A stretch of 64,000 nt of DNA from the NCBI GenBank assembly GCA_965224085.1, contig CBDCYI010000009.1, positions 96,001 to 160,000 of the forward strand, in the 5' to 3' direction. Positions within the stretch are counted from its first letter, which is position 1; each line of letters begins with the position of its first letter. The stretch is from Candidatus Marinacidobacterales bacterium. GTDB taxonomy: Bacteria; Acidobacteriota; Vicinamibacteria; Marinacidobacterales; SMYC01. Of this stretch, positions 1-21,082 are shown in pieces. The translations under genes were made by a program, and so were the position numbers. The notes under the pieces are model-generated. The model was not told where the DNA came from. It was given only the letters and a program-made list of their open reading frames with translations, and searched no databases.

Positions 1-324
1 GTGCCCATGCGCCAATGCGCCGAGCTCGCCGTCGAGGAGATCAACGCGCGGGGGTCGGCTCCCTTCCGATGGAAGCTGGTGGCGGAAGACGACCGGGCCG
101 ATCCCAAGGTCGCCGTCGACGTCGCGCGCCGCTTCGTCGACGACCCCGCCGTCATCGGTGTGGTTGGACACAAGAACAGCGGTCCTTCGGAGGCGGCAGC
201 GCCCATCTACGCCGAGGCCGGTCTCACCCAAATGACGCCTTCGTCGACCAATCCCGCTTTGAGCCGAAAGGGTTATCGCACCTTCTTCCGCCTCTGCGCA
301 CACGATACCCGGCAGGGCGAGGAG
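1..324 (+). repeat. Partial copy of the branched-chain amino acid ABC substrate-binding gene (matches 25022-25345)
   Basis: Direct comparison: 324 bp identical to 25022-25345 except one mismatch (300 a vs 25321 g); similarity stops after ...cagggcgaggag. Confidence 0.95.
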
Positions 325-669
325 AGAAGCGTCGTCGTGGGCCGCGGCGCTCACTATGTGGTGGCCCCCGATGAGGCGCTTCGAGTTCGAGTCGTGTGTT
401 CGCTTGAAGAGCGTGTCCGCCGGTACAGCGAGCACGAGGGAACGAGTCTCGATGCCGCCCGCAAGATTTTGGATCGTGAGGACGCTGCGCGTGCCCGCTT
501 CCTGCGCCACAACTACGGGAGCGATGGGACGAACCCGGCCGACTACGACTTGATCGTCAATACGGGACCGATACCGCTCGAGCGGGCTGCCGCGCCGATC
601 CTCGCCGCCTACGAAGCGAAGTTTGCTCGCAGACCCGGGGAGGCGGAAACAGAACCCCTCAGATCTTGA
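325..669 (+). pseudogene. C-terminal half of a cytidylate-kinase-like protein, fused in frame to the SBP copy
   Basis: VVVGRGAHYV...RVRVVCSLEERVRR...D.ARARF...YDLIVNTG is typical of the cytidylate kinase-like family; the N-terminal P-loop is missing. Confidence 0.75.
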
Positions 670-744
670 TCGCCAGGTCGGCGCCGTCGCGGGAGGAGAA
701 ACCTCGTAGGTGACTGCCATGGAGCAGACGCGTGTCGCTTCCAC

Positions 745-892
745 TTAGCTCTTGATCGCCAGAACGTCTTCGATCGCCGCGCGGTCCACTCGACCCTCAT
801 TTCGAAGGATCTGCCGTTTGGCCACCTCGTGTGAGACAACATCACCTGAGTCAGCGGCCTCCAGAGCGCGATCGATCTTCTTCTTAACGTAA
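745..892 (-). pseudogene. Remnant of a RelE/ParE-type toxin-antitoxin pair (antitoxin 3' end plus toxin 5' end)
   Basis: YVKKKIDRALEAADSGDVVSHEVAKRQIL, then ATG at 800 giving MRVEWTAR/AIEDVLAIKS with a 1-nt frameshift and an early stop. Confidence 0.6.
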
Positions 893-1047
893 CGTCCAAG
901 ATCGAAAGCGTGAAAGGGTGGAGCAGCTGGTTCTGGAGAAGAGCTTGCTTCCGTCGAGAGCCGAGCACACGTCGTACTTCTGACATGTATTGAACTGTCA
1001 AGTCCCGGCACGATCTTTTTTATAGCATCCGATCTCCCACGCTCATC

Positions 1048-1223
1048 TGGTCAGGGCACGAGCAGCATGAAGCGACGGTGAATCAACCTGATATACGCGT
1101 GTTGGTTAACGCCTGATATGTATTCGTCGCGGAGCTGCCTCTGTCTACTGGCGAGTGTTCTCCCGATAGGGGAGTCTCTTAGCACATTACGAGGATTCTC
1201 CAACCGGGCTCCTCGTGCCCTGG
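1048..1223 (-). ncRNA. Putative bridge/seek RNA downstream of the IS110 transposase
   Basis: Closing stem CAGGGCACGAG/CTCGTGCCCTG (1222-1212 / 1062-1052) enclosing two internal-loop hairpins; loop CCAGTAGA (1151-1144) is identical to the flank plus core (1771-1764); loop AATACATATCAG resembles the element end AATACATGTCAG. Confidence 0.7.
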
Positions 1224-1325
1224 CCACATCGTTGCGATGCCGACCTGTTCTGCCTGTTGCGCGGTATCGTGTGTCGTGGTGATCCACCTCCTGAGTCCGG
1301 AACCTCCGGCGGATGCCGCCGGGAA

Positions 1326-1667
1326 CTCACCAGAGCGAAACAGCGACGCTAACTTCAACCCATCGCGACGATCCGTCTTCACTCGCTCGCCAGGTTTCTT
1401 CGGAATCAACGACGGCGCCACCACTACACAATCGTGACCCGTCTCTTTAATCCAACGGTAAACTTCGTATCCACACGGTCCCGCCTCGTAACAGAATCCA
1501 AGCACTTCGCCCTCTCGCGAGAGGCGATGGACCAGATTCTGAATTGACTTCTTCGTGTTGGCGATCACACCCAGCGATTCGGGCTTGGACCGACCCGGGT
1601 TCGCCAACGCTGGCGAGATCGTCTCCTTGTGTACGTCCAGTCCCACGTATCCGCTATACTCTTCCAC
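1326..1667 (-). pseudogene. IS110 transposase, N-terminal DEDD domain only (about 114 aa)
   Basis: YVGLDVHK...CYEAGPCG...KTDRRDG motifs; homology ends at LFRSGE; RBS AGGAGG upstream of the GTG start. Confidence 0.9.
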
Positions 1668-1799
1668 GACCTGTCCTCCTTGATTATGGCTCTGAGCCTT
1701 CTTGCTAGATCCTCGAAAGCTTAACCCACGCCCTCAAGGTCAGGGCAGGTTCAATACATACTATCTACTGGGCTCGGCTAGAGCTAGAATGCCGACACT

Positions 1800-4006: not shown

Positions 4007-5373
4007 GGATGTGTCCCGAGGTTCGTGGAAAAAGAACGGCGCCCTCCACTCCGTCATCAGGGTATCAGATCAGGCGGCAACCTCCGCGTGTTTGAGAACC
4101 TCGCTCAGACCTTGGTAGCCGTCGATGCGCCGTAGTTGAATCTGGCCAGAGGCGATAAGCCCAAACAGCAAAGCGACCGCGGACTCCTCGCTGGAGAACG
4201 ACGCTTGGGTTTTCGTCCGACGTCGAAACTCGCGGTTGAGATTCTCCAGAGCATTGGTCGTGCGAATCGATTTCCACATGACACGAGGGAATTCGTAGAA
4301 GGTCAGCAGCTGATTACCGGCCTCCTCTAGGCTTCGGACGACGGCCGGTGTGAGAGGCGTCCACTTGGCGACGAGTTCGCCATAGGCTTTGCGAGCATCG
4401 ATCCCGTTCTTGGCGTAGACGATCCGGTTGTAGTCACGCCGGAGTTCACGGCGTGCGTGCGCCGGGCAATGTTCGAGCAAGTTGGCGCGCTTGTGCTCGG
4501 TACATCGCTGCACCCGGCACCCCGGCCACTTCTCGAGCGCTTTCGTCAGCCCCTTGTGGCCATCGCTAATCACTAGCTTGGGAGCCCGGAGTCCTTGAGC
4601 CTGGAGTCCCTCCAGCATGGAGCCCCAATGCGTCGAGGCTTCGCTCACCGCCAGACGCAATGACAACAGACGTTTCTGCCCGTCTGGCGTGACCCCGAGC
4701 GCGGCCAGTACGGGTACGCTGATCACACGCTTCGCCATCCGCACTTTCAGGTGGAAGCCGTCCAGGTAAACGATCGCATAGACCTCCTCGCTGAGATCAC
4801 GGTTCTGCCATTCTTCGAAGCACTCCTTCAGACGACTAACCACGCGAGACACCGCGCTCTTCGATAGGTGCTCCTCACCGAGCAGCGGTTTCAGCGCTTT
4901 GCGGATCCGGCGGCTATTCGCGCCCGACAAGTACGTCCCCAAGATCGCCTCGTCGACCTCACGAGTCCGGCGTGCATACCGGGGCAACAGCTCGCTCCTG
5001 AACTCTGTCGTTTCTCCCGTTTCCTCGTCTCGCACGCGGGCTCGTGGCACCCGGAGCTCGCGTGTTCCCACCGACGTCGTCACGCGACGGGTTTCGGCTC
5101 CGTTGCGATACCCACGGCGGTCTTCCGCACGCTCGTAGCTACGACACCCCAGCGCTTGGTCGACTTCTTCCTCGAGCACAACCTCGATCGCCTCCAGTAC
5201 CCGCTTACGCAGCCGAAGTTGGACGAACTCCCGGTACTCGCTTACGGACTCCTTCGATATGGTGGTAGGCTTCTTCATGGCGTAATCCTCCTCCTCGCCG
5301 TTACAGGCGTGGTTTGGTTTTTCTTAACCGGAGGTTACGCCATTCTTATTTCCACGGGAATCGGGACAGATCC
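4007..5373 (-). mobile_element. IS256-family insertion sequence, complete
   Basis: About 35-bp imperfect terminal IRs (GGATGTGTCCCGA..CGTGGAAA.AAGAA.GGCG at 4007-4041 and 5338-5373); 8-bp TSD ACACCAAG at 3999-4006 and 5374-5381. Confidence 0.95.
4070..5278 (-). CDS. IS256 (mutator-type) DDE transposase
   Basis: GYRNG..R...T.VG..L.VPR.R, VYLDG, VISDGHKGL, QRC..H, IRTTNALENLNREFRRRTK. Confidence 0.95.
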   Translation of the reverse strand: MKKPTTISKESVSEYREFVQLRLRKRVLEAIEVVLEEEVDQALGCRSYERAEDRRGYRNGAETRRVTTSVGTRELRVPRARVRDEETGETTEFRSELLPRYARRTREVDEAILGTYLSGANSRRIRKALKPLLGEEHLSKSAVSRVVSRLKECFEEWQNRDLSEEVYAIVYLDGFHLKVRMAKRVISVPVLAALGVTPDGQKRLLSLRLAVSEASTHWGSMLEGLQAQGLRAPKLVISDGHKGLTKALEKWPGCRVQRCTEHKRANLLEHCPAHARRELRRDYNRIVYAKNGIDARKAYGELVAKWTPLTPAVVRSLEEAGNQLLTFYEFPRVMWKSIRTTNALENLNREFRRRTKTQASFSSEESAVALLFGLIASGQIQLRRIDGYQGLSEVLKHAEVAA

Positions 5374-19824: not shown

Positions 19825-21082
19825 TCATCCGCGATTCGCTTTTTTTGTGGGCCACCGGGAGGGGTCGTAAAGGGTTCCTTGTCGAAGCATCGCAATGGCG
19901 ATGGGGAGAATGCGGTCCATGACGCCTCTGAGAGTTCTGGCATGGCTGTGGCCTCTGTCACGAAGCCGGTCGTAGTGTTCTTTGAAGTGGGGGTCGTGCA
20001 AAACGGCAGTGCGTGCCCAATGGTGGAGAGCATTATTGAGGGGCAAAGAGCGAGCTCTCCTCATCAGGATCGTTGGTCGCAACTGACCGCGCTTGCCGCT
20101 CTTTTTTGTGACAGGAGCAATGCCGCCGAGAGTCCTGAAGGCGTTGAGATTACGGAGCCGAATGGGGTCGTGGGCATAGCAGAGCACGGAGGCGAGCACG
20201 TAAGCACCGACGCCGGGCAAAGAGGCAAGAATGGCAGGGTCGGAGCAATGCTCGTCGGTTAGTGCTTGCACGCGCTTGAACCACTTCTCGAGATGCTGGT
20301 CGGAGGCACGACGATGTTGTCGAACGAGGAGCAACTGCTGGAGTAGTAGTTGGAGATGCTCGGCGGTAGCTTGAGTGGTTGCGGTTGCGACCCGGAGAGG
20401 TTTTTGTTTGAGGGTATCGAGGATCTTCTCGGGTTTTAGACGTCGGATGCGGTGTTTTTGAGCGAGGGTCTCAATGGAGTGGCGGCTAAGAGGGTTGGGG
20501 CTGGATTCGAAGAAGAGTTTTAGGAGCTCGCAGAAAAAAGCGTCGAGAGCCTTGTCCTTTGGCGCGAGCGAGACGAGGTGAGGCCAGCAACGAGTAAGGA
20601 GTTCTCGGATCTGCGAGCTGAGGGCCACATGGTTTTTGACGAGTTGGTCGCGGGTACTCAGCAACCCGCGCATAGCGAGGATCTCCGTAGGTGGGAGATG
20701 CAAGCGCTGAAAGCGGTGGCCGTCGGTTCTGAGCGAATCGGCGAGAACGAAGGCGTCTCGCCGATCATCCTTGGCGCCGCTCATAGAATGCCGGTCGCGG
20801 AAACGGTCGACCTGCTTGGGATTGATGGAGAAAATGGCGATGCCGTGGTCAAGAAAGAGCTCGACGACGGCCCCATGAGGTTTTTCGATCGCCACCGCGA
20901 TGCGCTCGGTATCTTGCGAGGTCTCTTCCAAAAGCCAGTCGATGGTTCCCGATAGTCCTTCGCGGCTATGGGGGGAAGCCTCTCTCCGCCAAGAAGTTAC
21001 CTTTGGCATCGACCACACTGGCCAAGTGAAGCCATTGACCCAGGTCGATACCGACGAAGAAGTCGTATTTGAGTTGATTCAT
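19825..21082 (-). CDS. IS110 transposase with a single frameshift in a G6 run (20970-20975)
   Basis: FVGIDLG, IEKPHG, INPKQ..RFR, AKDDRRDA, SLPGVG, GIAPVTKKSGK (Ser motif); removing one G restores a continuous frame. Confidence 0.85.

Follow-up and report, generated by a model that had tools for sequence, protein, structure and literature searches.

The locus and its features

Positions 980-1766 of the window, by which we mean the whole 64-kb stretch of genome G000 analysed here, are occupied by the remnant of an insertion sequence reading on the minus strand. It contains the stump of a transposase gene, followed by a strongly structured region predicted to encode a guide RNA, and its boundaries follow from empty-site logic, as described below. 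The features referred to in the text are, in the direction of reading:

980-1766, minus strand: remnant element of 787 bp, bounded by AG on both sides and derived by internal deletion from an insertion sequence of about 2.08 kb
1765-1766, minus strand: left core AG, placed by comparing the empty site of G016 with the occupied site of G013
1749-1760, minus strand: left subterminal inverted repeat TATGTATTGAAC, separated from the core by 4 nt
1323-1667, minus strand: transposase stump, residues 1-115 of 372, the frame then running on out of register to 1179
1316-1324, minus strand: internal deletion junction with about 1.29 kb missing, placed by BLAST block overlap and junction sequences
1047-1225, minus strand: predicted bridge/seek RNA gene, structured core (fold z = -3.97; 13 homologous RNAs)
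1181-1188, minus strand: predicted right target guide AAUGUGCU, 5' side of the loop in hairpin 1, able to pair with AG plus CACATT of the top strand
1145-1151, minus strand: predicted left target guide CCAGUAG, 3' side of the loop in hairpin 1, identical to 1771-1765
1113-1124, minus strand: predicted donor loop on the 5' side of hairpin 2, a 12-mer equal to the right end in the lineage of the window
1119-1115, minus strand: candidate right-donor guide AUAUC, pairing with the core G and the first 4 nt of the left end
1088-1094, minus strand: predicted left-donor guide AUAUCAG, from the loop on the 3' side of hairpin 2, equal to the last 5 nt of the right end plus the core
996-1001, minus strand: outward-facing TTGACA in the right end, read from the sequence
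985-995, minus strand: right subterminal inverted repeat GTTCAATACAT, with G at the 12th position in the window and A in G003
980-981, minus strand: right core AG and element end, placed by sequence and empty-site logic

The element was searched for in 61 related genomes, 10 of which contained a match to the first 115 residues of the transposase and 8 a match to the DNA of the 3' part. Wider sampling covered a taxonomic family of 19 genomes, with matches in 7. An exact-pattern scan of genome contigs returned four stretches that were all in the set already, and a scan of metagenomes yielded 10 contigs, which were used as well.

The transposase gene and its internal deletion

The open frame at 1179-1667 (minus strand) matches positions 1-112 of the 155 positions of profile PF01548 (E = 2.8e-8), and its remainder matches nothing. 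A full-length counterpart (L074) is present in G003, a genome of the same genus. It is 99% identical to the window copy and contains an open frame of 394 codons, coding for a protein of 372 residues with both PF01548 (positions 1-153 of 155) and PF02371 (Transposase_20; E = 7.4e-22). The stump is 99% identical to this protein over 114-115 residues. The G003 protein scores 257.9 bits on the model NF033542, "IS110 family RNA-guided transposase" (cut-off 140), carries the SG motif as GLVPSEHTSG and shows weak matches to solved structures, namely ISCro4 (3e-6) and IS621 (8e-5; 8wt6). It belongs to a very large clade with at least 8000 homologues at E values of 1e-20 or better, and the named ones among them are IS110 family transposases. 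PF02371 is missing from the window copy because the part coding for the C-terminal domain has been deleted. The assignment to the IS110 family and IS1111 group thus holds for the type of element, and the window copy is an incomplete member of it.

Because only two outer blocks of the window copy align to L074, at element positions 1-445 and 1731-2075 with 98.6-99.1% identity, we conclude that about 1.29 kb (446-1730 of 2075 bp) were lost. The two BLAST blocks overlap by 9 nt at 1316-1324, and the deletion took recombinase residues 116-372 together with about 520 nt of the spacer behind the gene. We considered an internal deletion made by the recombinase itself and rejected this, as the AG core is found at none of the breakpoints. 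The gene of L074 stops some 860 nt short of the right end and the RNA, about 179 nt in length, 67 nt short of it, so the preliminary description was right to place the RNA 3' of the transposase as far as the intact relative is concerned; in the window, what precedes the RNA is a stump of 115 residues. The stretch of about 620 nt between the transposase stop and the RNA in L074 (L074:1500-2115) contains no convincing open frame. An element of about 1.5 kb in genome G013 is devoid of this spacer, and the window copy is devoid of most of it.

The subterminal inverted repeats measure 11 bp for the window copy and 12 bp for that of G003 and lie 4 nt inside the core at either end. In a circle joined at the AG core, the TTGACA at 996-1001 would come to stand 17 nt from TAGTAT on the 1761-1764 side (CATTAT in most relatives), and the two motifs may form a junction promoter like those described from other IS110/IS1111 elements.

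A second, independent internal-deletion derivative (L076) was observed in genome G010 at about 1960-2390, in which element positions 151-232 are joined to approximately 1732-2075. Its right breakpoint lies no more than about 25 nt from that of the window copy, just 5' of a GC-rich hairpin some 100 nt upstream of the RNA. The near-coincidence of these breakpoints could reflect either a hotspot or the retention of a functional 3' block. G003 contains, in addition to the intact element, a rearranged copy (L081, 1298-1855), whose left end is inverted and joined to element position 1854 inside the DNA for hairpin 1. This left end retains its cognate left flank CCAGTAGATAG, and the left guide CCAGUAGAUAG of this copy matches the left junction in 11 of 11 positions. 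Other mobile elements were also seen in the window, namely an IS256/Mutator-type transposase frame at 4070-5278 on the minus strand (PF00872, E = 1.5e-87) and another IS110-family frame at 20581-20979 on the same strand (G000:C9:116581-116979). Genome G000 yields 41 matches to PF01548 and is thus rich in insertion sequences.

The core dinucleotide and an empty site

The element of G013 has cognate flanks on both sides, and its left flank is 98% identical to a locus of the sister genome G016, in which the element is absent. The unoccupied sequence in G016 reads ...GGAAACTT-AG-GAAATTAGAT..., compared to ...GGAAACTT-AG-ACAT[element]ATATC-AG-GGAATTAGAT... at the occupied site in G013. Therefore, the core is AG, only the core is duplicated and the ends of the element are fixed. 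The empty site, AACTT-AG-GAAATT, also agrees with the guides of the G013 RNA: the right guide AAUUUCCU is the perfect complement of AGGAAATT in the empty site, and the left guide AACUUAG equals the left half of the site plus the core. The AG core proposed in the preliminary description is thereby supported, with AG at 1766-1765 and 981-980 of the window. Insertion without duplication beyond the core was seen on the G013 element, a relative of the window copy, and an empty counterpart of the window's own locus was found in none of the five genomes of the genus.

The first 80 bp or so of the right flank of the G013 element (L078) recur at several places in G016 with 80-88% identity, and a stretch of 760 bp farther to the right recurs at more than 10 places with 69-75% identity. 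Similarity is also seen among the right flanks of several other copies, and, as judged by eye, some of the left halves make an inverted repeat with the right ones (GGATAG ... CTATCC). The element family may target a repeated, hairpin-forming sequence.

Fold and conservation of the RNA

The minus strand of 1048-1223 folds with a minimum energy of -66.7 kcal/mol, compared to a mean of -50.3 (sd 4.1) for 200 dinucleotide shuffles, none of which reached as low a value (z = -3.97). The minimum-energy structure contains the 11-bp closing stem around two internal-loop hairpins that had been noticed before in the bare sequence, with three further pairs added to the stem and large internal loops in both hairpins. 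We aligned 13 RNAs, consisting of that of the window, those of four related genomes and those of eight metagenome contigs recovered by a conserved-motif scan. Their mean identity is 92%, and the columns that vary are those of the four loop segments and of the hairpin 1 tip. There are 47 pairs in the consensus structure; one of them, in the closing stem, shows compensatory change (G-C, G-U and A-U), while two more show one-sided changes that keep the pair; because the scaffold is so highly conserved, the helices are hard to test by covariation. The RNA of the window does not differ from that of the intact G003 copy in any position.

A search of the whole 64-kb window against Rfam at gathering thresholds gave no match, and the only match within 900-1850 up to E = 10 was Chloroflexi-1, with 15.1 bits against a threshold of 80 and on the opposite strand. 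Scanning 900-1850 for consensus promoters and terminators likewise returned none of either. No conserved promoter was recognised upstream of the RNA, where conservation across subfamilies starts only about 14 nt before the stem.

The target loop

The preliminary description had equated the 3' loop of hairpin 1 with the left flank of the element plus the core, and CCAGTAGA is indeed present exactly at 1144-1151 in the loop and at 1764-1771 across the left junction. These are its only two sites in the 64-kb window, both on the minus strand. The bare count is unremarkable, as at least two matches were obtained in 18 of 100 shuffles; what counts is the placement of the copies. In the related RNAs, this side of the hairpin likewise gives left flank plus core, with CCAGUAG in the window and L074, AACUUAG in L078 and AGGAUAG in L103. 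In 4 of 7 copies, all four variable nucleotides agree with the left flank of the copy in question, while L077 matches in 3/4, L105 in 2/4 and L100 in 1/4. For the six distinct combinations of guide and flank, this amounts to 18 of 24 positions, a value reached by 12 of 720 permutations. The 3' side of the hairpin 1 loop thus varies along with the flanks and also fits the empty site of G016.

The 5' side of hairpin 1 consists of six variable nucleotides, corresponding to the reverse complement of the right flank, followed by CU, which pairs with the core AG. The observed pairs of guide and right flank are AAUGUG/CACATT in L075, L100 and L105, AUGUA/TACAT in L076, AAUUUC/GGAATT in L078 (with one G-U pair) and AAGUUC/GAACTC in L103. 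The guide AAUGUGCU accordingly pairs in 6/6 positions with the right flanks of L075, L100 and L105, and the variant guides of L076, L078 and L103 pair in 5-6 of 6 positions with their own. Altogether, pairing of at least 5/6 was recorded for 6 of the 11 copies that have both guide and flank, or 4 of 9 distinct combinations of guide and flank with four different guides, L100 and L105 representing the same locus in this count. The remaining copies showed lower values (window and L074, 1/6 each; L081, 0/6; L104, 4/6; L107, 3/6). Covariation on this side is therefore visible in four guides, each matching its own flank in at least 5/6, but the sum over all copies is not significant when flanks are shuffled among copies (1990 of 20,000 shuffles reach the observed sum), in a test in which four combinations have one guide in common and the flanks are alike among copies.

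Given that the loops follow the flanks in the relatives and that the guides fit the empty site, the earlier assignment to bridge/seek-type RNAs is upheld. No exact 13-mer of the predicted target was found unoccupied in G000, and the 40 matches with up to two mismatches appear to be due to chance. At G000:C5:971863 (minus strand), 17 nt agree fully with the right flank found at the G010 copy (TACATTGC...) within a region of no wider homology. They are preceded by CATAC, compared to the CATAG expected from the G010 guide, and may represent an unoccupied look-alike of a target or a chance match.

The predicted donor loop

Hairpin 2 had been described as carrying loops that resemble the element ends. 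The matches are real: with at most one mismatch, AATACATATCAG occurs at 1113-1124 in the 5' loop of hairpin 2 and at 980-991 in the right end (expected count 0.01; none of 100 shuffles gives two), and TATATCAG is found in the 3' loop, with ATATCAG at 1088-1094. The assignment that applies to the family as a whole is a different one, and the 12-nt identity is specific to the lineage of the window. Judging from the sequences of the relatives, the 3' loop of hairpin 2 would correspond throughout the family to the right end plus the core, whereas the last five nucleotides of the 5' loop would be complementary to the left end.

The 3' side of hairpin 2 reads AUAUCAG preceded by U or G. Reading the donor-loop counts by eye from a table of loops and junctions, we found the predicted left-donor guide to match the copy's own right end in 7/7 positions in 16 of 19 copies and in 6/7 in the other three (window, L076 and L086), both sequences being nearly invariant; in L076, one A-to-T change is common to the guide and the right end. 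The candidate right-donor guide sits in the last five nucleotides of the 5' loop before AG. Compared with the left end over these 5 nt only, it matches in 5/5 positions in three of eight copies and in 4/5 in the other five. Among its types are two compensatory ones, AUGUC facing GACAT (L078) and CUGUC facing GACAG (L103 and L108), next to AUAUC facing GATAG with 4 of 5 matches (window, L074 and L105). Because the 5' loop is identical to the right end in the window lineage and the ends are inverted repeats, this loop could also pair with the left repeat, which makes its register ambiguous in that lineage. In both hairpins, the predicted right guide, complementary to the top strand, is located on the 5' side, and the predicted left guide, complementary to the bottom strand, on the 3' side.

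These data bear on the reading that the region is protein-coding, or a GC-rich 3' UTR or terminator, and that the loops match by chance. A frame of 78 residues (1051-1287, minus strand) does overlap the RNA gene, and two occurrences of CCAGTAGA in 64 kb are not improbable in themselves. However, the frame belongs to no Pfam family, and coding is ruled out because homologues carry 1- and 2-nt indels in the loops that would shift any frame. As for the other parts of this reading, no terminator-like site was found in 900-1850, the 12-mer match is expected only 0.01 times, the loops change with the flanks and the empty site fits the guides exactly. We regard it as hardly credible at all and retain the guide RNA gene as the explanation of the region.

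Flanks and neighbouring rearrangements

The match of hairpin 1 to the right flank of the window copy had already been called weak, and it amounts to only one of six positions beyond the core. The reason is that the sequence now flanking the element on the right differs from its original target. What the guide calls for is AG followed by CACATT, which is the right flank of three other copies. The left flank is common to the window and G003 (99% identical) and contains the start of an aldehyde-dehydrogenase-like gene. On the right side, window positions 320-978 have a 100% identical counterpart in G003, whose end lies 2121 bp away from the right end of the element. The window is devoid of these 2121 bp, and the edge of the deletion falls exactly at the AG core of the element (window 979-981 compared with L118 of G003, segments L118:640-900 and L118:2700-2960). 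The sequence AGAA is common to both sides of the deletion junction. What fills the 2121 bp in G003 is a Y1 transposase frame of the IS200-like kind (PF01797, E = 4e-37) together with gene fragments. Because the right flank in G003 is non-cognate too (1/6), the original right half of the target had disappeared before the two genomes separated, and more was lost in the window later.

Farther out, positions 1-669 (plus strand) form a chimeric frame with its junction near 320-324, in which residues 2-105 match periplasmic binding protein families and residues 106-188 a cytidylate-kinase-like family. Because its two halves lie 3.3 kb apart in G003, we conclude that a second deletion or fusion event took place beside the element.

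Expression

Four metatranscriptome runs, belonging to three studies, contain contigs that cover the RNA gene. Among these, one of 192 nt corresponds to window positions 1040-1231 with no differences, and another covers 996-1231. The stop at 1231 falls inside the conserved leader of about 14 nt and gives a weak hint at the 5' end of the RNA. Two longer contigs (X15 and X16) come from intact-type copies, because they pass position 1324 into sequence found only in full-length elements, and among the metatranscriptome contigs none crosses the window's own deletion junction. The differences seen in one run lie in the guide loops (1148 and 1151, 1183, 1092 and 1095, 1117). Such contigs give neither strand nor ends and may stem from DNA in the RNA libraries, and the lack of contigs for other parts of the remnant is no evidence of silence. 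The contigs therefore support expression of the element family rather than of the window copy.

The coverage of the RNA gene, and the identity of the RNA to that of the intact copy despite the decay of the rest, would also fit an orphan RNA that no longer guides transposition and is kept for a role in the host or in regulation, for example in the antisense control of related elements or as a decoy. However, the window and G003 copies are 99% identical throughout, so that the identity of the RNA needs no selection, and the RNA contigs derive from copies of the full-length type or other copies. Moreover, RNA-proximal and left-end fragments are scattered and cut at many different points, as decay predicts. 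We consider such a role very improbable compared with a guide RNA gene left in a decaying element.

Proposed function and fate of the element

Taking these data together, we are highly confident that 1047-1225 on the minus strand is the bispecific guide RNA gene of an IS1111-type IS110 element, and that the window copy of this element is a dead remnant. In an active copy, hairpin 1 would act as the target-binding loop; its pairing pattern is documented by the flanks, and its role in recombination is taken over from what is known for the family. Its 5' side would pair with the core and the right flank on the top strand, and its 3' side, representing the top-strand sequence of about 5 nt of the left target plus the core, with the bottom strand. 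Hairpin 2 would serve as the donor-binding loop, its 3' side corresponding to the right end plus the core and the last five nucleotides of its 5' side pairing with the left end. By analogy to the family, the DEDD recombinase is expected to exchange strands at AG and to insert the circularised element with duplication of the core only.

The window copy itself is probably dead, since residues 116-372 of the enzyme are gone, the right flank is foreign and the right end has one mismatch, a G where the guide expects A. A gene for the cognate recombinase was not found in G000, where the nearest full-length IS110-family frames are about 26% identical to it, and apart from fragments of 51-169 nt the genome contains no other copy of the element.

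The structure of the remnant also invites the idea that its 787 bp are a working non-autonomous mini-element, moved in trans by a recombinase encoded elsewhere. It has kept both ends, both inverted repeats, a cognate left flank and an RNA with the same sequence as in the intact copy of G003, and engineered mini-IS with short ends do move when provided with transposase and seekRNA, as stated in the cited passages of PMC11187229. The derivative in G010, which lost a different left part, retained roughly the same 3' block. However, it is present in G000 as a single copy beside short fragments, and the nearest full-length IS110-family frames are as distant as given above. Its right flank is non-cognate (1/6), whereas circle formation reportedly needs both target halves according to the same passages (PMC11187229). 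The right end is mismatched to the guide, and the G010 derivative is without the left end altogether. We therefore rate mobility of the 787-bp remnant as quite unlikely. The same holds for the wider notion of a natural "mini bridge element" made up of ends and guide RNA, which could persist through continued use of its RNA block and would be moved in trans or would titrate or redirect a related recombinase; we would give it only a slim chance. If it were true, the visiting recombinase could sit on another replicon, and the RNA-bearing pieces in several genomes would make up a population of parasites that are guides only, as has been suggested for ISPpu9 and its Ssr9 module. A dead remnant containing an intact guide RNA gene remains our preferred reading.

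Significance and comparison with known systems

The element family provides a well-resolved natural guide code of the IS1111 type in an uncultured Acidobacteriota lineage. To the target guide, hairpin 1 would contribute 8 nt from its 5' side and 7 nt from its 3' side, each stretch taking in AG, and the predicted donor loop has the same polarity. On a single scaffold, at least six right target guides and nine left ones are distinguished among the 13 RNAs, which should be useful for modelling or engineering recombinases of the IS1111 type. Such RNAs are recognisable from sequence alone, and a mismatch between guide and flank can signal a later rearrangement and does not necessarily speak against the RNA. 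The RNA of the window itself raises no new question.

The core dinucleotide of IS621 is CT. The bridge RNA of this element has two internal loops, one for the target and one for the donor, as predicted here (Durrant et al. 2024, PMC11208160; see also Hiraizumi et al. 2024, PMC11208158), and according to the former paper, each loop has a left guide directed at the bottom strand and a right guide directed at the top strand, both including the core dinucleotide, and the enzyme also combines a DEDD domain with a Tnp_20 domain. In contrast to the description of IS621 there, the RNA of our element lies in the right end and the order of the guides is reversed. The core of our element is AG, and the proteins match only weakly (E = 8e-5).

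ISPpu9 is another member of the IS110 family with an RNA gene (Ssr9) downstream of the transposase, and copies of its RNA module without a transposase gene exist (Pares-Guillen et al. 2025, PMC12288879). RNA-only circles are reported to form in that system, and Ssr9 is reportedly dispensable for transposition. The pieces observed here, consisting of the RNA alone or the RNA plus an end, are cut at different points and resemble products of decay.

The closest parallels are found among the IS1111 elements. As characterised in PMC11187229 and PMC11208160, this group is marked by subterminal inverted repeats, which measure 7-17 bp, and a long non-coding stretch after the gene. The seekRNAs of ISEc11, ISPa11, ISKpn4 and ISPst6 (Siddiquee et al. 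2024, PMC11187229) are likewise encoded downstream of the gene for the transposase, within a long non-coding region. In the same account, the elements share with ours the subterminal inverted repeats, the GL-P----SG motif, also seen in the G003 protein, and a segment complementary to the top strand located 5' of that for the bottom strand, the two overlapping at the insertion point. Compared to what is given there, the RNA sequences are unrelated, and no Rfam or other model matches the RNA of the window. The intact element measures about 2.08 kb with a spacer of about 620 nt, the recombinase has 372 residues compared to the 330-350 quoted for IS1111 transposases, the host belongs to the Acidobacteriota and the enzyme has been lost from the window copy. 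The preliminary description had pointed out a layout unlike that of IS621. The order is indeed reversed relative to IS621 as presented in PMC11208160, but this had already been published for the IS1111 seekRNAs in PMC11187229. The class of the element, the position of the RNA and the reversed order of the guides are thus already in print, and what our comparison defines for this clade are the predicted positions of the guides, their polarity and the AG core.
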